This document shows positions 413 through 17,148 of a stretch of 20,000 nucleotides of DNA, one piece after another (the stretch's first letter is position 1; every line of letters begins with the position of its first letter). The stretch is from contig JWZX01003320.1 in the NCBI GenBank assembly GCA_001275005.1, positions 54,764 to 74,763 of the forward strand, in the 5' to 3' direction. Below the pieces are notes generated by a model that saw only the letters and a list, made by a program, of their open reading frames with translations, did not search any database and was not told the DNA's origin. A program made the translations under genes and the position numbers. This DNA is from Chrysochromulina tobinii. Lineage: Eukaryota.

Positions 413-3400
413 ATGAGCATGTTCTCGCTGAGCATGCTCTCGAATCGCGGCCGTCCGAGCTCTTCGGACGCCGCCGAGATCGCAGGCTTGCCGTTCGCAG
501 CGGCCCTCAACGTCAGCCCCGGCGTGCCGTCCTCGTCGAAGCAACGTGCGCGAGCGTCCAGCCCTCCTAAGCCGCCGCCCGTCGCAGTAGCCAGCCCACC
601 GCGGCCGTCGACGCCGGACCAGCCGAGCCCGGCGGAGGCCTTCGCGAAGAAGTGGGAGGTGGAGCAGACCAAGAAGCAGATGCTTCTCGACGAGCTCGAG
701 CTGGTGCGCGCGCAAGTCTCCGAGTTGCTCGAAGACCAGCGGCGCAGCGAGCATCTGAATGCGACGCCGTCCGAGCACATCGTGCTGTCCGCTCACCACG
801 CCGGCGAGGCGCTCGCGCGCAGCCTCGCATGGTGCTGCGAATGGATGAGCGCCGTCCTCCGCGGATGCGTGGCCGGTGCCGCCGGCAGCCGCAGCCGGGC
901 GGCCCGCCCTCTCCATGCGCTGCCTCGCGATGACGAGGAGGACTCGGTGGCGGGGCGGGCGAGCTCGCTGCTGGGCGAGGAGGGCGCGAACGACACGCAC
1001 CTCGCCCGCAAGATGCGTCGGAGCGCGCCGGCGCGGGGCCTGGTGACGAAACCCGAGATTGCGTCCAAGGGCGGCGTGACGAAACCCGAGAGCGCATCCA
1101 AGGGCGGTGTGACGAAACCGAGCCCGAAGGGCGATCCGAAGCATGCGAGAGTTCCCGAGGATAACCCCGAGCTCGTGGCGGCGATGGGGCGTTGGTGCGC
1201 AGGCCACGTGTCCAAGCAGGTGCGTGCGATCTCGCTGCGATCTCGCTGCGATCTCGACACGATTGCAAAACCTCGACACGCCTCGACTCGCCTCTGCATG
1301 CCTCGAGTTACCTCGACTTGCCTCGAATGGCCTCGAATGGCCTCGAGTTGCCTCGCAGGCGTGGGATTTGAGCATGCCACTGATTGCATGCTGATTGCAT
1401 GCTGATTGCATGCGGATTGCATGCTGATTGCATGCTGATTGCATGCTGATTGCATGTCGCAGGCGTGGGATCTGAGCATGCTCGTCCTCATCATCTACTC
1501 TTGCGTCGTGATTCCCTTCCGGATCGGCATGTCAGTACCGAACCCGACGGGCGTCAGCCAGGTGCGATCTGGCCCGAGATTGCGATCTGGCCCGAGATTG
1601 CACCTCTGATCGCACCTCCTTGCACCTCCTTGCGCCCGATGGTCCTCTCTGTGTGTGTGCCACGTGGCTTGCCATGTGACCCAAGTGACACGCGTGCCCC
1701 TCTGCAGACGATCGAGCGTTGCATCACGCTCCTATGATTGCCTCTGATGACCTCTGATGACCTCTGATTGCCTCTGATGACCGCTGATTGCCTCTGCAGA
1801 CGATCGAGCGGTGCATCACGCTCCTCTTCATCGTCGACCTGTGCCTCAACTTCAACACCGCCTACCTCGACGGATCGCACTTCATCGTCGACCGGTCCCT
1901 GATCGCGCGTAACTACCTCATGGGATGGTTCTGGATCGATCTCGCCTCTTCGATCCCCTTCGAGGACCTTCTACACCTCTTAGTGCTCCTCACCGGCAAC
2001 GAGGAGGCGTTCTCCGGTCAGCCAGATTGCTCTCAGCCTGCTCTGATGACCTCTGATGACCTCTGATGACCTCTTTTGACCTCTGTTGACCTCTGATGAC
2101 CTCTGAGTGCCCTCTGAGTGCCCTCAGAATCCTCTGAGTGGGACCGATGCCCCTTCCTTATTAGGCAACCCGGCGGCCCTCAAACTCCTTCGTGGCCTAC
2201 GCCTTGTGCGACTGCTGCGACTGCTCAAGCTGCTCAAGCTGCAGCAGCACATCGATACACTCGAGGACTATCTCGAGGTTGACCTCGGCTTCTTACAGGT
2301 GCCACTGATTGCCACTGATGGCCACTGATTGCCACTCGAGGACTATCTCGAGGTTGACCTCGGCTTCTTACAGGTGCCACTGATTGCCACTGATTGCCAC
2401 TGATTGCCCCTCGAGGACTATCTCGAGGTTGACCTCGGCTTCTTACAGGTGCCACTGATTGCCACTGATTGCCCCTCGAGGACTATCTCGAGGTTGACCT
2501 CGGCTCCTTACAGGTGCCACTGATTGCCACTGATTGCCACTTGATTGCCACTTGTTTGCACCTCGATGACATCTGAGTGCGCCCGAGTGCATCTAAGTAC
2601 GCCTGAGTGCATCTGAGTGCGCCTGCTAGCACCCCTCGATTGCATGCGCATGCAGATCCTCAAGATCGTCACTGATTGCCACTGATTGCATGCGCGTGCA
2701 GATCCTCAAGATGGTCACTGATTGCCACTGATTGCCACTGATTGCATGCGCGTGCAGATCCTCAAGATGGTCGCTATGATCCTCTACCTGATGCATATCC
2801 TCGGCTGCTTTTGGTTCTTCGTCGCGACCAACTCGGGCTATGAGGGCACGCTCGAGGCCGGTGACACGTGGCTCGCGAGGTACCACTGATTGCAACTGAT
2901 TGCCACTTGAGTGCACTGATTGCCACTCGATGCCGGTGACACGTGGCTCGCGAGGTACGATGGCGGCTCAGGGCTCACCATCCCCCTCGGCATGCAAGTG
3001 CTCACCACGACGCCCGGACTCCCCACAGGTACGATGGCGGCTCAGGGCTCACCGCCCCTCTCGAGACCCAGTACCTCTTCTCCATCTACTGGGCGCTGAT
3101 GACGCTCACCACCGTCGGCTACGGCGACATCACACCCGCCAACGACTCCGAGCGCCTGTAATCACTGATTGCCACTGATTGCCTCATGAGCGCCTGTAAT
3201 CACACCCGCCAACGACTCCGAGCGCCTGTAATCACTGATTGCCACTGATTGCCTCATGAGCGCCTGTAATCACACCCGCCAACGACTCCGAACGCCTGTG
3301 CGCTTCCCGCGCTCTGCCCTCGAGATCGCCTCCTGATCGCATCGAGATCGCATCGAGATCGCATCGTGATTGCATCGAGATCGCATCGAGATCGCATCGT

Positions 3401-5848
3401 GATCGCATCGTGATTGCATCGAGATTGCCTCATGGTGTCCCCCTTGCGCGCTCGGCTCCCTGCTGCTCGGCGCGCTCGGCCTCGGCATGCAAGTGCTCAC
3501 CACGACGCCCCCCCCTCTTCCCCACAGGTACGCGCTCGGCTCCCTGCTGCTCGGCGCGCTCGTCTTCGGCTTCATGCTCTCGTCGATCGGCGGCTTAGTC
3601 AAGGGCCTCGATAAGGAGAATATCCGGCTGCAGCACAAGATGGATGAGGTCAAGGAGTTCACCAGATGGCATAAGATGCCTAGTGACCTCTCCTCGCGCG
3701 TGCGCAAGTAGGAGGATTGCTGATGACCTCTAATGACCACTGATGACCTCTGATGACCTCTGATGACCGCTGATGACCTCTGATTGCCTCCCTCATCAAG
3801 CACGCTTGGCTCGGGCGGGGCCACGAATGACCACAGAGTGCACCTCCGACGACCTCTTGAGTGCTTCCGTTGGCCCCCTCCTCCTCCCCAGGTACTACGA
3901 GTTCTATTACCACTGATGACCACTGATGACCTCTGATGACGTCTGATTACCTCCCTCCTCAGGTACTACGAGTTCTACTACCAGAAGCTCTCCTCGTTGC
4001 CCGAGGAGGTGATCCTAGCGCGCGCGCCCAGCTCGCCCTCGGCATGCAAGTGCTCACCACGACGCCCCCCCACCACCCTCTTCCCCACAGGTGATCCTAG
4101 CCGACATGTCGCCCGAGCTCAAGGCATGCAAGTGCTCACCACGGCGCCCCCTCACCCTCTTCCCCACAGGTGATCCTAGCCGACATGTCGCCCGAGCTCA
4201 AGGCCGACGTCATGGCACACCTGCTCGCGCGCTCGGTCAGCCAGATCCCTTTCTTTTACGTGCCCGTGCTCGGCGCGAGCGAGCCCGCGCCGCCCGACAC
4301 GGCGTTCCAAATGGCCATCTACCCGCTCTTGAAGCCCGTCGTGCGCGAGGCGAAGGAGATCATCATCTCGCGCGGAGATGCACTCTCCGACCTGACCTTC
4401 GTGCACAAGGGCACGGTGCATGCCTACGGCCTCTGGAACGCCGCACGCCAGCTACGGCCACCCCATATTAGGCAACCCGAGTGGGCAGGCGGCCATCCCA
4501 TCTTAGGCAGCGGGTCGGCGCTCAGGACGACGCGGCGTGTCATCGGCCCGCGGACCGCGCGGGTGCTCGCCGACGAGGAGGAGCTCGCGCTCAGGACGGC
4601 GCCCAGCTTCGGCCGGCCGTTGCTGACGCTGGCCGAAACGGGCGCGCTGCTGAGCGAGGGCGCGCTCACGGAGACGCCGACGAAGATGGCGTACATGGCG
4701 GTGCTGCGGACCGAACTGGTGCTGATGGCGCGGTCAGACCTGCTCAAAGTCCTGGACGACTTCCCACACGCGCGTTATGAGATTGGAGCCTTCATCAAGG
4801 CGGAGATGCTCGAGCGCCTCAAGATGACCTACTTCTCCCTCCGCTTCCAGGTGACGAACCCGTGCTGATGGAGCCCTGATTGCGGTGACGAACCTTTGCG
4901 TGGAGCCCTGATTGCGGTGACGAACCTTCGCGCGGAGCCTGGATGAAGCCTTTGGTTGGCCAACGGCCCGATTGCCCCACTCATCACCTCTGATGACGAC
5001 CTCTGATGATGACGATGATGACCTCTGATTGCCCCCCCCCCCCTAAACAGGTGCGCGAGGCGTACGTCATCTGTGACGAGGAGGTCCGCGCGGTCCGCCT
5101 CGCGTACCGCGAGAACAGCTCCAATTACGTCGCCAGCTTCAACCTCCTCCAGATGGGCGCCTTGCGTCTCCAGATGGGATGGCTCAAACGGCAGATCCAG
5201 AAGCTGGCGTCCACGCCCGCGACGGCGCTCGTCCCGTGCATCTATGGAGCGCCGCCGCGGGCGCCGCCTGCTCCTGCGGCGCATCGGCCGCGCACGCCGA
5301 CGAAGCTCACCATCGAAGCTCTGGACCGCCTAGTGGGGAGTGGAATGGGCGTCATGTTGGGCGTCGCTCCCTTTGGTGGCGCCATGTTGGGCATCGCTCC
5401 CTTTGGTGGCGCGCTCCTCCCGCGGATCCACTCGCCACGCACTAGCCAAGCGGACGCGGCCGCTGCGCTGTCTGCAACGGACCGAGGGCGCATCGACGAG
5501 ATGACGAAACTCGCGGGCAGCGGCAGCGGCAGCGGCAGCGCGCGCCAACTGGTCGGGAGCGCGAGGTCGCAATCTGGGAGCGCGAGGTCGCTATCTGGGA
5601 GCGCGAGGTCGTACTCTGCGCGGGCGGCGGTGCGCGATCTCTCCGTGCGAGATCGCAGCCCGGCGCGCCTGCAGAGGGTCGACGAGGAGGAGGCGGCCCT
5701 CGAGCGCAGCGCCGTCCCGGGCGGTGCTGGGGCCGTCGCCGCCTCCTCGGAGGCGCTACACGGCTTGCGACAGGTCGAGGCCAAGCTAGGAGACGACGAG
5801 GCTCGCCTCGCTCTCTTGAACGAGAAGCTCGCGTCCCTGCTCCGGTAG
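413..5848 (+). CDS. voltage-gated K+ channel of the CNBD superfamily (KCNH/HCN/CNG-like), 10 exons, about 1070 aa
   Basis: Exons 413-1219, 1463-1561, 1800-2016, 2165-2298, 2758-2879, 3029-3157, 3528-3707, 3963-4008, 4170-4850, 5051-5848; all introns GT-AG, phases consistent, 3213 nt in total. Product has S1 (AWDLSMLVLIIYSCVVIPFRIG), S2 (FIVDLCLNFNTAY), S3 (YLMGWFWIDLASSIPFE), S4 (LLRGLRLVRLLRLLKLLK), S5 (MHILGCFWF), pore YWALMTLTTVGYGDITP, S6, C-linker (LSSRVRKYYEFYY...ILADMSPELKADV), a CNBD-like domain (LTFVHKGTV) and a C-terminal coiled coil. Confidence 0.93.
1378..1456 (+). repeat. intronic minisatellite (CTGATTGCATG)n
   Basis: About 7 tandem 11-mers between two copies of the exon-2 acceptor/start. 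Confidence 0.9.
2042..2140 (+). repeat. intronic minisatellite (CTCTGATGAC)n grading into (CTCTGAGTGCC)n
   Basis: Tandem 10/11-mers in intron 3; the same 10-mer family recurs at about 1735-1797, 3720-3790, 3911-3950 and 4987-5031. Confidence 0.9.
2260..2550 (+). repeat. 4x tandem copy of the exon-4 3' end plus donor plus (CACTGATTGC)n
   Basis: Unit CTCGAGGACTATCTCGAGGTTGACCTCGGCTTCTTACAG|GTGCCACTGATTGCC starts at 2260, 2335, 2410 and 2475 (periods 75, 75, 65). Confidence 0.95.
3129..3299 (+). repeat. 3x copy of the exon-6 3' end and donor (70-bp period)
   Basis: ATCACACCCGCCAACGACTCCGA(G/A)CGCCTGT at 3129, 3199 and 3269. Confidence 0.92.
3335..3428 (+). repeat. intronic minisatellite (GATCGCATCGA)n
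   Basis: About 8 degenerate 11-mers in intron 6. Confidence 0.85.
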
Positions 5849-6319
5849 CGCGCCGTCGTGGGCGCACCTGCCCCTTTTGCTCGCCGCAGGGCGTCGGAAC
5901 ACGTGGCAACACTGCCGGTCCGATCGTGCAACACTGCCAGTGTTGCCAGTGTTGCACGACGTCCGATCGGATCTGGCAACACTGCCGGTCCGATCGTGCT
6001 TTCGGGAGGGTGGCCCGCCCGCCCGCCCCTTTTCAGAACGCCACCTCTACCGTCCGTGCTGTGACACCTCTGCCATGTGGGTTCGGGATCTGCAGGATCG
6101 ATTGTGTGTTATAGGGTTAGGGCTTAGGGACCCGCGCACGTGATCGTGTAAGACCTGCTCACGTGATCAGCTGATGATATGTGCAATTCCAACTCGTTTC
6201 TCAGGACGGGAGGCAGGTGCGGCCGAGCTCAGAGCTTCCCAGATCCCAGGACGGAGCGCTACGTAAGCAGCAGTAAGGGACGTCGAGATACTAAGGCGGT
6301 CTCCGCTCTAGCTCGTACG
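5751..6319 (+). repeat. copy 1 of a local segmental duplication (channel C-terminus plus 3' flank)
   Basis: Aligns by eye with 7105-7712 from AGGCGCTACACGGCTTG to CTAGCTCGTACG, with small indels. Confidence 0.93.
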
Positions 6320-7104: not shown

Positions 7105-7712
7105 AGGCGCTACACGGCTTGCGACAGGTCGAGGCCAAGCTAGGAGACGAGGAGGCTCGCCTCGCTCTCTTGAACGAGAAGCTCGCGTCCCTGCTCGACC
7201 GGTATTACTCCGGTAGCGCGCCGTCGTGGGCGCACCAGCCCCTTTTGCTCACCGCAGGGCGTCGGACCTGGCAACACTGCCTAAACACTGCCGGTCCGAT
7301 CGTGCAACGCTGCCAGTGTTGCAGTGTTGCACGACGTCCGAGCGGATCTGGCAACACTGCTGGGTGCTGGTCCGATCGTGCGCCGTGCTTTCGGGAGGGT
7401 GGCCCGCCCGCCCGCCCCTTTTCAGAACGCCACCTCTACCGTCCGTGCTGTGACACTTCTGCCATGTGGGTTCGGGATCTGCAGGATCGATTGTGTGTTA
7501 TAGGGTTAGGGCTTAGGGACCCGCGCACGTGATCGTGTAAGACCCGCTCACGTGATCAGCTAATGATACATGTACATGTATGTGCAATTCCAACTCGTTT
7601 CTCAGGACGGGAGGCAGGTGCGGCCGAGCTCAGAGCTTCCCAGATCCCAGGACGGAGCGCGCTGCGTAAGCAGTAAGGGACGACATAGGCGGTCTCCGCT
7701 CTAGCTCGTACG
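7105..7712 (+). repeat. copy 2 of the segmental duplication (fragment of the channel 3' end)
   Basis: Re-encodes ALHGLRQVEAKLGDEEARLALLNEKLASLL; an insertion near 7197-7212 shifts the original TAG out of frame. Confidence 0.93.
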
Positions 7713-8206
7713 GGGTATTCGGTTGCGCTGGTTTAGGTACTTGTGAGGTCAAGGGTGTGAGGTACTTGTGTGTTTCGACTAATTAGCTTGCTTGCTTGCC
7801 GCGCGCGCCTTCATTTCGCCGACCGCCTTCGAGCAGGCGCGGGGAGGCGCTCTGGGAGCGGGTGAAGGCAGGGTCGGGTTCGCTGGGGGCGGCCTCTTCT
7901 GAGTCGGCCGCGGGGAGCGGTCGGCTCCGGGCCTGCGGCTGTTGAGTCGGCCGCGGTTTCGGTCGTCGCGCTGACGTGCGGGTTGTGTGTTGTTGGTGGG
8001 TTTGGATGGTTGTGAGGTTCGTCTGTGTGGTCCGTGTGCCTTTGTGCGCCCGCGTGCCCCGTGTGCCCGTGTGTGTGTCCCGGCTCCCCCCGTTGTCTTT
8101 TTACCGGTACCGGTGCAGTTCCGGTCCGGTTTTGAAACCAATGCTCGCACGGCCTCCCATTACGCACAAGAATGGGGGATCACTCCTTGGGGGCGTCAAA
8201 CACGGC

Positions 8207-11200
8207 ATGGTCTTGCCCACGTTCTTGGCGTTGATGAGCGTGCCCGACCCACTGATGAGCGTGGCTCCACCGCCCCCGTTCATCATCGAGCCCATGCTGC
8301 CGCCGCGCGCAAAGCCCCCCAAGCTGGCCCCCACATCCCACGAGTGGGCCGTCCAGGCGGGCGGTGGATCGAGTGAGGCCGCAGGCCGCGCAATTGCGAC
8401 CGATGGCGCAGGAGGGGCACTCGTGACCGGTCACTTCACGACTGCAGGTTTATTCGGCTCCAAGTCGCTCCTAAGCCGCGGCGGGGAAGACGCTTTCGTG
8501 ATGCACGTGACGGCGTCAGGGGACATCGACTGGGCCGTCCAGGCAGGTGGCACGGGTATCAATGACGAAGCGCGCAGCTCGGGCATCGCGCACGATGGCG
8601 CGGGGGGCGCTTTCGTGACGGGAGTTTTCAGTGGCACGGCATCGTTCGGCGATACGTCACTCACAAGCCGCGGCTCTTTCGACGCTTTCGTGCTCCACGT
8701 GACGGCGTCGGGGCTCATCGACTGGGCCGTCCAGGCGGGAGGCGCGTCCTACGACCAAGGCTTCGGCATCGCGCACGATGGCACGAACGGTGGTGCTTTC
8801 GTGACGGGCACCTTCGCTGGCGAAGCGCACTTCGGCTCGTACGCCGTGACAAGCCGCGGCGTGTACGCCGTATTTGTGATGCACGTGACGGCGTCGGGCG
8901 TCATCGACTGGGTCGTCCAGGCGGGCGGCAAGGGCACTGATAATGTAGGCCGCGGCATCGCACACGACGGCTCAGGGGGTGCTCTTGTGACGGGTACATT
9001 CGATGGCAGCGCTTCACAACCATGCTTCTCCTCGACTTCATCAGCATGCCATGCATGGTTCGGCTCGACCACGCTCACAACCCATGGCGATCTCGACACC
9101 TTTGTGATGCACGTGACGGCGTCGGGGGCCATCGACTGGGCCGTCACGGCGGGTACCTCGGCCCTTGATTGGGAGTGCATTTTCTGCGAAGTTTATGTCC
9201 TTGGCGTAGGCATCGCGCACGATGGCGCGGGGGGTGCTCTCGTGACGGGCGCATTCAAGGGTGAGGCATTCTTCGGTTCGAAATCGCTTAAAAGCCGCGG
9301 CATATACGACGACGTTTTCGTGATGCACGTGACGGCGTCGGGGGCCGTCGACTGGGCCGTCCAGGCGGGCGGCGCGTCCTACGACCAAGGCAACGGCATC
9401 GCGCACGATGGCGCGAACGGTGGTGCTTTCGTGACGGGGTGCTTCGCTGGCGAAGCACACTTCGGCTCGTACGCCGTGACAAGCCGCGGCGTGCACTCCG
9501 TATTTGTGATGCACGTGACGGCGTCGGGCGTCATCGACTGGGTCGTCCAGGCGGGCGGCATGGGCACTGATAACTTCGGTCGCGGCATCGCACACGATGG
9601 CTCGGGGGGTGCTCTCGTGACGGGTACCTTCGATGGCAGCGCTTCACAACCATGCTTCTCCTCGACTTCATCAGCATGCCAAGCATGGTTCGGCTCGACC
9701 ACGCTCGCAACCCATGGCGATCTCGACACCTTTGTGATGCACGTGACGGCGTCGGGGGTCATCGACTGGGCCGTCACGGCGGGTACCTCGACCCTTGATT
9801 GGGAGTGCATTCTCTGCGAAGTTTATGTCCTTGGCGTAGGCATCGCGCACGATGGCGCGGGGGGTGCTCTCGTGACGGGCGCATTCAAGGGCGAGGCATT
9901 CTTCGGTTCGAAATCACTCAAAAGCCGCGGCGGCATATACGACGACGTCTTCGTGATGCACGTGACGGCGTCGGGGGCCATCGACTGGGCCGTCCAGGCG
10001 GGCGGCGCGTCCTACGACCAAGGCAACGGCATCGCGCACGACGGCGCGGGCGGTGCTTTCGTGACGGGTGATTTCATGGGCGAAGCATCGTTCGGCTCGA
10101 TGTCGCTCGTAAGCCTCGGCGGTTCCGACGCTTTCGTGATGCACGTGACATCCTCGGGGGCCATCGATTGGGCCGTCCAGCTGGGTGGTGCGGCCGTCGC
10201 ACCTCCCTTCGACGTAGCATATGGCATCGCGTACGATGACACGCTCGAAGCAGGTGCTCTCGTGACGGGCGCTTTCAGGGGCGAGGCATCGTTCGGCTCG
10301 AACTCACTTGCAAACCGTGGCGCTGCTGCTTCTTGCTTTGTTGCGTCTCTAGAGCCGCCGCCCCCAGAGGAGCCTCCACTGGCTACGACATGCAACGGTG
10401 GATTCGTCTCGAGTCGAGTCGAGTCGCTCGCTTTGGGTCGAGTGGTTTGCAATGCTGAGCCGGGGTCTCGATCTTGGACCCCCGGGGGTGGCCAGGAGGC
10501 ATGTGAGGCGAGGGGCTGCTGCTGGGTGCCAGTGCAGATGGGCGATCCACCGGGGACCCCGGGGTGCTTCTACCTGGTCGCACCGTCGCCCCCACCGACA
10601 CGGCCACAAGAAGAGGTGCCCTCTGATGTGGTGTCCTCCAATTGGGCCGTCGAGGTGGAAGGCACCGCTTCCTCTTCAGGCAACGGCATCGCGCACGACG
10701 GCGCGGGGGGCGCTTTCGTGACGGGAGTTTTCAGTGGCACGGCATCGTTTGGCGATACGTCACTCACAAGCCGCGGCTCTTTCGACGTTTTCGTGCTCCA
10801 CGTGACGGCGTCGGGGCTCATCGACTGGGCCGTCCAGGCGGGAGGCGCGTCCTACGACTACGACCAAGGCTACGGCATCGCACACGATGGCGCGAACGGT
10901 GGTGCTTTCGTGACGGGTACCTTCGCTGGCGAAGCGCACTTCGGCTCGTACGCCGTGACAAGCCGCGGCGTGTACGCCCGTATTTGTGATGCACGTGACG
11001 GCGTCGGGCGTCATCGACTGGGTCGTCCAAGCGGGCGGCATGGGCACTGATAATGTAGGCCGCGGCATCGCACACGACGGCTCGGGGGGTGCTCTCGTGA
11101 CGGGTACCTTCGATGGCAACGGTGACGAAGCATGGTTCGGCTCGATACCGCTCACATGCCGCGGCCGCTCGAACGACGCTTTCGTGATGCACGTGACGGC

Positions 11201-13254
11201 GTCGGGGGTCATCGACTGGGTCGTCCAGGCGGGCGCCGTGGCCCCGGGTCCAGCATACAGTTCCACTTATGTCGGAGGCCAAGGCCTCGCGCACGATGGC
11301 GCGGGGGGTGCTCTCGTGACGGGCGTGTTCAAGGGCGAAGCATTCTTCGGCTCGACGTATGAATGGAACGGAACACACTCTAAACCAGTTGCTGGATCAA
11401 GACTCAAGAGCCACAGCCAGTACGACTCCGATATGTTCGTCATGCACGTGACGGCGTTGGGGGCCGTCGATTGGGTCGTCCAGGCGGGCGGGTGGGGGTC
11501 AACCCATGGTTCCAACATCGCGCATGATGGCGTCGGCGGTGCTTTCGTGACGGGCGACTTCATGGGCACCGCATCGTTCGGCTCGACGTCGATAGTGAAC
11601 CTCGGCGGCTCCAACACGTTCGTAATGCACGTGACGGCGTCGGGCATCATTGACTGGGCCGTCCGGGCGGGCAGCTCGGATGCGGGGGATCAGGCTTTCG
11701 GATACGAGGGCTCAGGCCGTGGCATCGCATACGATGGCACGGGAGGTGCTTTCGTGACGGGTCATTTTAGGGGCGAGGCATTGTTCGGCTCGACGTCGTT
11801 TGTGAGTCGCGACAGTGACGATGCTTCCTCGTACGCGATGCACGTGACGGCGTCGGGCGTCATCGACTGGGCCTTGCAGCTGGGCGGCGCGGCAGATGAC
11901 ATTGGCCTCAGCATTGCGAGCGACGGCGCGGGGGGTGTTCTTGTGACGGGCCATTTCACAGGCGAAGGAACGTTCGGCTCGAAGACACTTTCAAACCGTG
12001 GGGGGCTCACGGCCTGCTTTGTGGTTTCTCTCGTGCCGACGCTACGTCCACCGGTGCCTGCTCGTCGATTGCCACCTCCCGCGCTGGCTGTCCAGGAAGT
12101 CAGCTCTGGCGTTAGCATCCTACTGGTTGGCGCCGCGCTCGCCTTCACGGCCGCGGTCCTCTTCGCACTCATGCTCTGGTGAGCCCCGCAGCGTCCTTGA
12201 AGCAGAATGACCACGCTTCCTTGGCTGCACTGACCAATTGTGTTTGTCTGTTGGGCGTGCGCACAGGAACGCGCGCCGGCGCAACGCGCAGCTCGCGAGG
12301 GAGAAGGAGCGGCTCACGTACGAGCGCACGTTTGCCCTCCATGCGCTTCACTTCCAGCGCCCTCCTCTCCCCTTCGACGCACAATACAGTGATCACGTCT
12401 CCCACTACTCGAGCCCAGATCACATAGACCACCCGGGACCGATGGCACCGGCCGCCTTCGCTCCGGCCGCCTCCGCTCCGGCCGCCTCCGCTCCGGCCGC
12501 TCGGGCTGCAGGGGCGCCGGCTGGGGATGAGGCGTTCGAGGTCGAGATGTTGCCGATCGGCGAGCCATGCGACACCGCAGGCCGCGTCAGCAGCCCTTGG
12601 CGTCTGATCTTCCCTTCCCGAGTCAAAGCGTCGAGAGTCGAGGGGGGCTTTCTGGACAGTGCAGCCCTCTTGGCCGCTGCGGGGGGCGCTGTGCCGCCCT
12701 CCATCCAAAGCTTGCCGGCCGTTGTCACCGTAGCAGGGCCGCCAGTGCCTTCGTGCGCCGCGGCATCACCCTCGCGGGCTGTAGCGGCATCACCCTCGCG
12801 GGCCGCGGCACTCTCAACTATGGACCGCCTGGATCACATCATAGCGCAGCCTGGCAATCGGCACGGGTCTCGGCATGGCTCTATCGGCGGCGGAAGCAGC
12901 TACGGCACGGAAAGTGAGTGTTCTAGGTACGCAGCTGCGATGGCGATGGCCAGCACAGCACAATCGCTGCCGCAGACACCGCCGCAGTCGCCGCCTCAGA
13001 CGCCGCTGCAGACGCCGCAGTCGCTCGCCCGGGCGGATGCCCTCGAGCGGACGCTGCGATTGTGCGGCTTATTGCCCGAGCCTAGTGCGGCGGAGGAAGC
13101 TTCGCTCCCTGAGGCGCTGGAGGGTCCGGCCTCTCCGAATGGCGACGACGGAGCGGCCTCCCCATGGCCTCCCTATGCCAGCCTGCCACGTGGCTTGACG
13201 GAGCGCGCGCGCCTCGCGGGCCTCGCGGGCCACTCGTTAGGCGCGGGCACCTGA
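8207..13254 (+). CDS. large single-pass membrane protein: 10 + 7 SBBP-like beta-propeller repeats, trefoil-like domain, TM helix, low-complexity cytoplasmic tail (about 1650 aa; contains a +1 frameshift)
   Basis: Joins ORFs 7976-11050, 10986-12182 and 12238-13254. Likely start ATG 8207 (GGCATGG, short hydrophobic MVLPTFLALMS; ATG 8141 is an alternative). Repeats of about 60-85 aa: WAVQAGG..GIAHDGAGGAxVTG.F.G.A.FG...DAFVMHVTASG.ID. CEARGCCW...PGCFY at about 10448-10573. Extra C at 10977-10979 versus the paralogous repeat at 8861-8880. TM ILLVGAALAFTAAVLFALML. The GTGAG..CACAG intron 12179-12266 (88 nt, CTGAC branch-like motif near 12230) restores W-NARRRNAQLAREKER in frame. Confidence 0.85.
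8696..9958 (+). repeat. intragenic tandem duplication of three propeller blades (630/633-bp period)
   Basis: Near-identical blocks start at 8696 and 9326, with a partial third at 9959; antisense shadow ORFs 8749-9180 and 9379-9810 are offset by exactly 630. Confidence 0.93.
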
Positions 13255-13469
13255 TTGCCTCCCTCATCGGGCACCTGATTGCACTCATCATCACGGGGGC
13301 TGAAAAAGCATGTAAAAATACTGAACATTTAAGAGCCCACTCGGGAATCGCACTCCCAACCGCCATTGGTCGTACTGTAGCTCGTACTGTAGCCGACTGG
13401 TCATTCGTTTTTGAACACGTAAGCATGTGCACCCGACACGAAAAAACCAGTCATGAGACATGACCGGCG

Positions 13470-16437
13470 TTAATCTAGTTCTAGATCGGTGTCCCCTGGA
13501 GCCTGAACCATTCCGATGCCATTCTCTGAGTCATCTTCGTAGCAGAAGACTTGGCCTGCCTGGGCCCGTCCATGTTTGCCCGTGGCAGGTCGCGGGAGCA
13601 TATAGGCCACGAGCGAACGTGCCTTACGTCGTGCGGAAGAGGTCTCTGGCGAGGTGCCCTTGACACCCTCGATCAGCGTTAAGTGGACACTATCTCCGTT
13701 GTCGTCGTCGAGGTTGCAAGCGTCGACACCGGCTACACCGCGCGGCCCCGCGAGTGTTGCCTGGGGCTTCCCGGCATCTCGAGGCGGTCCCGCGGATGCC
13801 TCCATGAGCGGCGCCTCCCAACTGTAAGTCCTCTTGAGGATGCGTAAAGGGTACCAAGGGTCGATCACGGCGCCGACAGCGAGCAGCGCCCCGATCACGG
13901 CGCCGACAGCGAGCAGTGCCCGCGGCAGCGCCAACCTTCCGGGCAGTCGTGGAGGAGGAGTAGGAGGAGGCGTAGGAGGAGGCTCCGACAGCCGCGCGGC
14001 TGGCGCCCGCAGCACATGCTGCGGTGATTCCGGCGAGGGATATGCTGAGGGGGGCGGCGCCGACGGCGGCATCTGCCACGGGATCTCCGGTGTTGGGAGA
14101 GGTGGAGGTGGGGAGGGGTCGGGCAGCGGGGGGTGGGAGGGCGGCAACGGCTTCGGCTGTGACGGCAAGGAAGGCTCATCTGCCTTTACATCTGCCTGGC
14201 GGAAGGCCTTATGGGCGGCCCACACGGGCAGTGGCATATCAACGAGCCTCGCGAGAGCCTTCCAACGATCTGAACTACTCGGCTGCTCATCGGCGAGGAG
14301 GTTGTCGAGCAGCAGGTCTATTCACAGAAAGAGGCTCGAACGCGCAAGACAGAGAGGTGAGCGAGGACCAATAAGCGAGGACGCGCTGGAGGTGACACTG
14401 GCGGGGCACGTGCTCGCGCGGCCAGGCCAAGGCCAGGCCATGGCACAGATTCGCTGCAGGGTCATGGGCAGCTCGAGAACGGGTTCGAGACGCCTGCCGC
14501 AGGTTACGCGAGGGCGGCACGGTGCACATGGTTAGAGCCATCTCGGTCACATAGGACCACGCCGCCCCGAGGCCGTATTGCGACGCTGCCCAGCCCACGC
14601 TCGCAACGCTTGGCGACTGCACCGCCCGCCTCTCGAGCTGCTCGAGGCTCGCGCCGCCTGTGTCGATCGGATAGATCTGCGACAAGCTGCGCTCCGTCAT
14701 CCAATAAAACGGGGCGGCATGCACGCCGTGATGCTCTTGTGCGCGCTGCCGGTACCACTCGACGCTGTTCTGCACAGTGAGCACCACCCGGGCGTCCTCG
14801 TGCGCCGCATACAGGAACGGCAAGAGCTGCGCGATGGGCACGTCGGCGACCGCGTCGAGGTCCTTGAGCGCGCCACAGTAGTCAAAGGTGGCAAGCTCAG
14901 AAGGTTTGAGGGCCCAAATCGCCCTTCGGAAGCTCGTCCATGCGTGCTCTCGCCGGGTGCACTCAGCGATGCCCATGCTGTCCGGGCACAGGAACTCGTC
15001 CCAGTGGCCCACGGCCAGACCGAGCTGCTGTACCGCCCACGCATAGGTACCCGTGCCCGTCGCGCCCTGGCCAGCCAGCAGGACGAGCGGACGGCGGCGG
15101 CCGGCACATGAGGAGGCACCGGGCGTGGCCCCTGCCGCCAGGGGGGCAAGGTAGCGCAGCCAGGTGGCACCGGCTGCAAGCATAGTCGGGAGAGGCGGGT
15201 GCACCTTTTGGCCTCGGTCGGAGCGGTCGTGCGCCTGCCAAAACTCATTGTAGCTGAGCCAGAAGGAGACGCAATCGCCACTGGCATGCACATTTCTCGT
15301 GATGCACTCAGGCGGCGCTCCGCGGAAGGGGCGCGTGTCTGCCCACCTAGGCAGAGGCACGTCCGCCAGTTGCGCGAAGCGGCGCCAGCGCTCCGCATCC
15401 ATCTGACGGCGAACGACGTCTGCGTCGGTGCGGTGGTCCGAGAAGACATTGGTGATGATGAGCCGATCGGGCGGCACAAGGCACACGACTAAGGCGAGCT
15501 CTGCAAAGTAACTCCACGAGGCCGCCTTGATACCCATAACCTGCACGTTATGGCCGACGCTGCCTCTGCCGGCATACGTATCACTGATCGACGCGCCGCT
15601 GATCCAGAAGAAAGGTGCCATGTCCGTGCCGCCCTTCCACTGTACCCGTCGAGGGTACCACTCCTCACTTTTTCGAACAGTGAGCACCACCCGGGCGTCC
15701 TCGTGCGCCGCATACAGGAACGGCAAGAGCTGCGGGATGGGCACGTCGGCGATCGCGTCGAGGTCCTTGAGCGCGCCACAGTAGTCAAAGGTGGCAAGCT
15801 CAGACGGTTTGAGGGCCCAAATCGCCCTTCGGAAGCTCGTCCATGCGTGCTCGCGCCGGGTGCACTCAGCGATGCCCATGCTGTCCGGGCACAGGAACTC
15901 GTCCCAGTGGCCTGTAGCGAGCCCCAACTCCCGCGCAGCCCAGGCATACGTCGACGTTCCAGTCTTGCCATCACCCGCCATGATCAGCAGCGGGCGCGTA
16001 CGGCCGGGGCATGTCGACTTTGGTGGCGTGAGCTGATCGAGCAGCGTCGCGCAGGGCAGAGACGTGTTTGGCAGCCGAGGCGGCAGCGGGGGCAGTCCTG
16101 GTGCTGGTGGTGGCGACGACGGCGGGGGCAGTGATGGAAGGGGAAACGGTGACAGCGACGGCAGCAGCGACGGCTGTGCAATAGGAGATGCAGTGGATGC
16201 GGACGGCAAAGGAGATGAGGATGGAGAGGACGCAGGAGGGAAATGGAATGGCGGCGGTAATGTTGGTAGAGATCCGGTACTTGCTGACGGTTGACTGACG
16301 CTGCGTACCACCACCTCATAATAAAGGAGTGCTGATGCAAATCCCATGCTTACCGGCATCAGAAAGATGCAGAGCAGCAACGTGAGAGCTCGAATCAGGG
16401 TTCCTGGGTATGCTACGGTGGATGGACCGTGGCCCAT
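13470..16437 (-). CDS. membrane-anchored protein with two tandem P-loop sulfotransferase-like domains (Sulfotransfer_4-type), 2 exons, about 925 aa
   Basis: Exons 16437-14508 and 14317-13470, intron 14318-14507 (GTAACC..AATAG). Splicing yields VPPSHLLLDNLL..RWKALARLVDMPLPVWA, matching domain 1 VPPDRLIITNVF..RWRRFAQLADVPLPRWA. Motifs MAGDGKTGTSTYAWAARELG, DAIADVP, DARVVLTVRKSEEW. N-terminal hydrophobic anchor, Pro/Ser stems, second hydrophobic segment near the C-terminus. Start codon uncertain. Confidence 0.8.
14774..15912. repeat. near-identical 236-bp patch shared by the two sulfotransferase-like domains (14774-15009 and 15677-15912)
   Basis: 903-bp offset; 4 mismatches counted by eye. Confidence 0.92.
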
Positions 16438-17148
16438 GGAACAGTGCGATGGCCCCACGGCTCTGTGATTGGCTGGGTTGATCCGGATGGTTCGTGGAGA
16501 TCCGACGGTTGAAAGAACATGCCGCGGCGGACCCAAATCTGCCCAAATGCATGTTCTGCAAATGCATGCCCTGTCGAAGCTTGTTTACACGTAGATGGAA
16601 GCTGAAGTTTTGATACTTGAAGGCGGTGACCTCGAGACCTCGAGACCCTGCGAACGTCCGCGCGCACGCCTTTCGCAGCAGCATCCTCACGCCACGGGCC
16701 CCGCGCGCGCGCTATGGCTAACACAGGCGCTGGCGGGGGCGTGGGCGATGGCGTGGGCACCGCCACCCTCGGCTCGCGCACGGGTCGTACGAGCGCGCGA
16801 CGCCATGTGGCGCGCACGCCCCGCCGAGGACGCGCATGTCTCTCGTCGGACGTCGCGACGTCGACACCGTGGACCCGCGTGCGGTCGTGGTTTTGTTCAT
16901 ATCGTCTCAAGCCCGATCCCGAATTTAATCCTAATGATCGGGAGATATCATTGGAGCAGTCGGAGTCGTGGCCAGACCCCCTTCGCCCCCACAGTGAGCA
17001 ACGCCCCGACAATGAACATCTGACAAAAGATTGGGTCGGACGCGCTGCCTCCTTGTGGGAAGCTGGGAACAACTCACGGACCCAGGGAGGCGACGATGCC
17101 AAATCTGGACCTTGTTATTATGGACCTTGCTGCGCGTCGTGGAGCGAA

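Follow-up and report, generated by a model that had tools for sequence, protein, structure and literature searches.

The stacked GT..AG units inside the introns of an ion-channel gene of Chrysochromulina tobinii are probably junction-spanning duplications, likely left by an active copy process that also makes introns of about 74 nt, and the AG|GT points at which the units meet would be a by-product of this copying. The stacks are read as real and as a variant of introner-like intron gain, their recursive splicing being putative. The gene lies in the window, i.e., the whole 20,000-nt stretch of DNA that was analysed, which has a GC content of about 0.62, compatible with the 63.4% given for Chrysochromulina tobin (PMC4580454).

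The host gene and its exons are as follows.

413..5848, plus strand: host gene, 10 exons, 1070 aa, six-transmembrane pore-loop ion channel
413-1219, 1463-1561, 1800-2016, 2165-2298 and 2758-2879, plus strand: exons 1-5
3029-3157, 3528-3707, 3963-4008, 4170-4850 and 5051-5848, plus strand: exons 6-10

The joined exons (413-5848) form a stop-free frame of 1070 codons, and the four long relatives aligned to the gene (P0037, P0038, P0041 and P0042; 914-1014 aa) all run without an indel across introns I1, I2 and I4-I8, and the intron model therefore holds. Ion_trans_2 was found above the cut-off in exon 6 and Ion_trans below the cut-off in three exons, and the presence of PF00027 on relatives suggests a KCNH/CNG-like channel. 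A GC-AG intron near 4428-4510 was considered and dropped because P0001-P0003 conserve the frame there, which is open. This open conserved frame (4426-4510) contains two acceptor-like motifs (TTAG|GC), and an in-frame 15-nt piece (about 4460-4474) is missing from allele L056; the region may be a cryptic or dead intron.

Other features were also observed in the window. A duplication about 1.4 kb further on, with 98-100% identity, takes in the channel gene's 3' end and the sequence downstream of it (5751-6259 and 7105-7660). Long stop-free frames at 7946-12182 encode a protein of many similar repeats, with a frame switch near 10960-11050, and a 765-codon frame on the minus strand (14287-16584) contains an internally duplicated domain. 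At 13245-13295, at the end of the 12211-13254 frame, there are two CTGATTGC-type motifs like those of the channel introns, perhaps marking another intron.

The first-pass annotation had divided the channel introns at internal AG|GT points, and the sequence reads as it described: CAG|GT is present at 2373, 2448, 2513, 3891 and 4090 and GAG|GT at 2954, giving units of 75, 75 and 65 nt (I4), 75+74 nt (I5), 71 nt (I7) and 82+79 nt (I8). The equivalent CAG|GC point of I1 at 1358, with its 104-nt unit, and the acceptor-side junctions of I2 and I4, which read CAG|A and are unable to ratchet, were likewise found in place. Two donor duplications in I6 reading CCT|GT (3227 and 3297) had been overlooked. 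The units are listed below.

1359..1462, plus strand: I1 acceptor-side unit, 104 nt; 19-nt copy of the exon 2 start and 11-mer repeats; CAG|GC
1708..1799, plus strand: I2 acceptor-side unit, 92 nt; 26-nt exon copy and 10-mer repeats; CAG|A, non-ratchet
2299..2513, plus strand: I4 donor-side stack, 75+75+65 nt; CTGATTGCCA-type repeats with a GT donor and with 39 nt copied from the end of exon 4 (last letters CAG)
2656..2757, plus strand: I4 acceptor-side units, 46+56 nt, each opened by a 15-nt exon copy; CAG|A, non-ratchet
2880..2954, plus strand: I5 donor-type unit of 75 nt, combining GT and repeats with 29 nt copied from the end of exon 5 (last letters GAG)
2955..3028, plus strand: I5 acceptor-type unit, 74 nt; 25-nt copy of the exon 6 start and shared cassette, core at 2990-3008
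3158..3297, plus strand: I6 donor-side stack, 70+70 nt; 29-nt exon-end copies; CCT|GT, non-ratchet
3447..3527, plus strand: I6 3' end; copy of the exon 7 start without AG|GT, then shared cassette, core at 3485-3503
3892..3962, plus strand: I7 acceptor-side unit, 71 nt; 21-nt exon copy and CTGAT repeats; missing in allele L056
4009..4090, plus strand: I8 unit 1, 82 nt; diverged exon-start copy and cassette, core at 4042-4060
4091..4169, plus strand: I8 unit 2, 79 nt; exact 32-nt exon copy and cassette, core at 4124-4142

Every internal point is a copy of one of the host gene's own exon-intron junctions. Among the 12 junction duplications of the gene, an internal AG followed by GT or GC was found in seven (six AG|GT and one AG|GC), and the other five are non-ratchet, with CAG|A once in I2 and twice in I4 and CCT|GT twice in I6. 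AGGT was counted nine times inside the nine introns against 1.1 in dinucleotide shuffles, and none of 1000 shuffles reached nine; six of these are the points of the first-pass annotation and three are copies of the exonic GAG|GT within the I4 repeat. Since every point copies a junction, the ratchet motif arises automatically: where the last letters of an exon are AG or its first are GT, the copy of its junction necessarily reads AG|GT. The copied exon stretches in the window contain only 7 mismatches in 357 nt, indicating that these pieces are young.

The window units consist of an exon copy of 15-39 nt joined either to a donor module or to a module with branch point, pyrimidines and AG. In I4 the donor and the final 39 nt of exon 4 form three repeats, the acceptor and the initial 21-32 nt of the following exon are repeated in I7 and I8, and I5 consists of a donor-type unit followed by an acceptor-type unit. 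The folding of six window units was no better than that of shuffles (z -0.68 to 1.55).

Four copies of the core of the shared cassette, GCATGCAAGTGCTCACCAC, are present in the window, and introns I5, I6 and I8 contain them all. Loci were picked from public collections by an exact-match scan with one exact 20-nt motif, so the totals are lower bounds: at least 142 occurrences at at least 90 distinct sites in at least 123 loci (at least 122 from metagenomes and 1 from a viral collection), which places similar sequence in introns of unrelated genes, as in introners. Introners are also similar over the whole intron, and this was not found here, the 21-51 nt ahead of the core being mostly a copy of the host exon. 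The 90 core sites among the matches listed comprise 68 acceptor-type, 6 donor-type and 16 that are neither. In 54 of the 66 evaluable acceptor-type sites among these matches, compared with 0.3% of mismatched pairs, an anchored duplication was observed in which the sequence following the AG is repeated ahead of the core; the remaining 12 were under the duplication threshold. These duplications, again among the matches listed, are 10-43 nt long with a median of 26 nt, and 47 of the 54 begin with GT; the short fixed duplication of 3-9 nt belonging to TIR DNA transposons was not found at these sites. Four of the six listed donor-type sites (L021, L032, L063 and L116) have as acceptor a clean copy of the exon end that ends in AG.

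Stand-alone cassette units are likely real introns, as indicated by the reading frame, which was restored by excision in 20 of 22 single units of non-3n length (p=3e-8) and in 25 of 28 units overall among the matches listed. For this test the codon model was trained on the window gene, and sites with less than 60 nt of clean flank and the window gene were left out. As with introners, insertion would thus create a spliceable intron. The sense orientation scored higher in 26 of the 28 units among the same matches. None of the six units of 3n length in the frame-test set has an in-frame stop, and such units could be retained without truncation of the protein. The matches listed include 33 stand-alone units of 66-93 nt (median 74 nt), and the eight window units do not differ from them in length (p=0.84).

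Some loci depart from this pattern. In L069/L115, L112, L002/L120 and L050 the core and a flanking duplication are present without a splice site, in units of 33-63 nt that are sometimes tandem. Near 600-660 of L037, six extra bases stand between the AG of the cassette and the resumed target copy, and here the template seems to have run past the splice site.

Unit-sized indels (57-97 nt) were found in 6 of 23 non-identical allele pairs, a comparison based on short-read assemblies, in which near-identical tandem copies can collapse, as is relevant to some of the pairs. The indel between L027 and L110 was left out of account, since it reflects the edge of a locus that is identical but shorter. 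Allele L056, which is 98% identical to the window, is without the 71-nt I7 unit and has a single I8 unit; its entire 79-nt intron corresponds to I8 unit 1, and the tail of I8 unit 2 resembles both I8 unit 1 and L056. An 81-nt unit in L017 faces an empty site inside an open frame in L003. In the sister population (P0036, P0048 and P0049), for which the evidence is from protein only, the I5 site is read straight through, a 72-nt I6 cassette is present and another cassette lies 11 codons upstream. Presence and absence between close relatives, as seen with introners, thus applies to the L017/L003 site and to I5, which is missing in the P0036 cluster. The process making the units is evidently recent.

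Two further differences were observed. In P0050, also of the sister population, a cassette stands directly before the I5 site and the four residues after the site are missing, possibly reflecting an independent insertion there. In P0034, I6 runs straight into exon 7 without a cassette, and this may be an allele or a collapsed repeat.

Signs of a source and its copy were found between loci. The linker, core and tail of L084 match those of L074, the linker being L074's own exon copy, with 10 nt common to the two exons at the switch point, and L029 stands to L070 in the same relation. The I5 unit of the window and L004 have a common linker and tail and about 9 nt of exon similarity. Units with at least 5 nt of common linker (27 pairs) have more similar tails (permutation p=0.0002), and over all 902 pairs there was no rank correlation between linker and tail similarity (rho 0.01). 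Microhomology of at least 3 nt (3-7 nt) with the core was present in 5 of 12 abutting units, compared with 3.8% by chance, and the other seven have 0-1 nt. In some modules there are bits of the exon-derived half of a different intron, suggesting copying from intron to intron via microhomology.

The process proposed for these observations is named 'copy out and step back'. A growing DNA strand would switch by short homology to another intron, or slip on itself, copy about 40-55 nt of an intron end, and then re-anneal 10-43 nt upstream; the copied template may be DNA or RNA. Inside an exon such an event would yield an intron whose two splice sites come one from the module and one from the duplicate, and at an existing junction it would yield a stack. 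The mRNA would lose the entire stack, in a single step between the outermost sites if the junction is non-ratchet, and at AG|GT junctions probably through both one-step and stepwise splicing. Neither an enzyme nor an autonomous element was found. A wider version, possible though doubtful, would be a transposon-free chain reaction in which any intron end could, by short homology, template the next intron, 10-43 nt of exon are duplicated each time, and zero-exon arrays built by repeated events segregate among alleles and are recursively spliced.

Under obligate recursion, which is considered unlikely, each donor would pair with the nearest acceptor and AG|GT stacks would be removed unit by unit, making repeated insertion tolerable. 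The first-pass annotation had proposed that each duplication adds an intron-sized unit, and this part is upheld by the build and length of the units, which match those of stand-alone introns, and by the whole L056 intron that equals I8 unit 1; these observations also speak for recursion. Internal acceptors in I4 have pyrimidines at 9 of 12 positions and a branch-like motif 17 nt upstream, branch-point and pyrimidine motifs were also seen before the internal AG of I8, and a fission-yeast intron of 336 nt offers a precedent (10.1101/226894, as far as its available text goes). Stepwise splicing is plausible for I4 and I8, since their units look like whole introns, and detectable splicing intermediates are given about even odds. 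In contrast, the internal acceptor of I5 is weak (GAG, pyrimidines at 6 of 12 positions), and no branch-like motif was found within 109 nt of the internal AG in the upstream part of I7. The added I7 unit carries branch-like motifs 17-47 nt from the new acceptor, and this arrangement would favour one-step use of the distal site.

The further proposal of the annotation, that recursion explains the tolerance of the units, was not supported. Five of the 12 duplications in the gene are non-ratchet, two of them within I4, and all 12 give a premature stop (codon 280-705) when taken as the final donor or acceptor. In small, hand-curated samples of stacks outside the window, drawn from the matches listed, AG was present in 7 of 12 donor stacks compared with 14 of 33 stand-alone introns (p=0.50), and GT in 10 of 12 acceptor stacks compared with 79 of 115 terminal acceptors (p=0.22). 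The donor stacks are 11 of 26 non-window rows plus L043, the other 15 rows being dropped as other repeat registers or as GT matches inside acceptor-type units; the acceptor stacks are 10 rows plus L078 and L070. Intact AG|GT points are expected at such low divergence (chance 0.57), and the copies are too young to reveal conservation. Because non-ratchet stacks occur in the host gene and there is no enrichment elsewhere, tolerance does not appear to depend on the ratchet, and recursive splicing is likely not required for it.

P0033, which comes from a 1.6-kb contig, shows 100% identity to the exons as joined over I4, I5 and I6 and ends where unspliced I7 begins. It is likely a partly spliced transcript, and an allele without the I4, I5 and I6 introns is possible. 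If it is a transcript, ratchet and non-ratchet stacks alike would be cleanly removed.

Another improbable reading takes the cassette for a short non-autonomous retroelement that entered by target-primed reverse transcription, or for a reverse-copied intron RNA, with the repeats as target-site duplications. Duplication length varies, as is typical of SINE-like and other non-LTR insertions, and the sense orientation of 26 of 28 units fits this reading, but selection would give the same bias. Introners of non-LTR and of unknown mechanism exist, the former being about 5% of those classified (PMC12130899, available parts). Against this, the donor and acceptor types fix opposite ends of the module around a single core, the modules contain pieces, specific to the locus, that derive from other introns and from the local exon, the template of L037 seemingly extended six bases beyond the AG, and Rfam gave no match in the five loci searched.

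Plain local tandem duplication across splice junctions, without dispersed copying, is very unlikely to be the explanation. It accounts for the near-identical copies in I4 and I6 and for I8 unit 2, and a duplicated AGGT yields an intron experimentally, with a minimum size of about 60 nt (PMC3265369, in the part available), but one core at at least 90 unrelated sites, the filled L017 and empty L003 site, and the linker-tail pairs common to unrelated genes are left unexplained. As sole cause it is contradicted, and it is likely part of the process, not the whole. An assembly artefact is hardly credible: 10-11-nt repeats and near-identical copies do pose difficulties for assembly, but the copies vary by substitutions and repeat number. 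Two other assemblies, L122 and L072, match the window with 100% identity over stretches of 1754 and 1576 nt, respectively; the match covers I5-I8, with the I4 donor stack outside its span, so that I5-I8 are not a one-off assembly error.

The preferred reading, intron-to-intron copying with duplication at the junction, was compared with known systems. Recursive splicing at zero-length exons belongs to long animal introns, where, as here, the acceptor directly abuts the donor inside the intron. In fission yeast, spliceosome profiling detected recursion in the 336-nt intron of SPNCRNA.445 at a site conserved between species, so short-intron recursion is not new in itself; the putative window sites, in contrast, are young, allele-variable and not enriched (10.1101/226894, available text). 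One- and two-unit alleles, together with ratchet and non-ratchet stacks in one gene, offer a natural test of short-intron recursion. No description of the family or of haptophyte stacks was found in the literature, in a search mainly of open-access papers; the supplementary family tables of PMC9860276 and PMC12130899 may list it.

In introners as described, target duplications are short and fixed, and these elements are regarded as transposons; the present family differs from them. In the accessible parts of the sources, introner target duplications are 3-9 nt, with 4 nt in a family of Chrysochromulina sp. (PMC9860276, Fig. 2C), and those of dinoflagellate introner classes are 3-8 nt (10.1101/2020.10.14.339549). 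Introners in which the target-site duplication supplies one splice site (Symbiodinium, Polarella classes 4/5 and 6/8/10, and Chrysochromulina sp.) likewise combine a dispersed one-site module with a duplicate, leave the mRNA unchanged and occur in donor- and acceptor-carrying forms. As those sources describe them, however, their duplications are 3-9 nt and fixed per class, whereas those of the present family are 10-43 nt, variable and about one third of the intron, and the present module has one variable end and contains pieces of other introns. Because the family is one-third host-exon copy and apparently passes from intron to intron, searches for whole-intron similarity would miss or split it.

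In Micromonas, nested or merged introners are known, and copies land in or beside earlier copies in sense orientation, as here; unlike here, no long exon duplicates or zero-length-exon stacks are described in the text available (PMC3879977). Seven mechanisms by which introns are gained are covered in a review (PMC3443670), and in gain by AGGT tandem duplication the duplicated junction supplies both donor and acceptor, as in the present family. Compared with that route, as given in the parts of the sources available (PMC3265369; PMC3443670), a foreign module lies between the copies here, the arrangement recurs genome-wide, and the AG before the GT is dispensable (14 of 33 stand-alone units among the matches listed). 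The present family would unite tandem duplication and intron transposition as one route.
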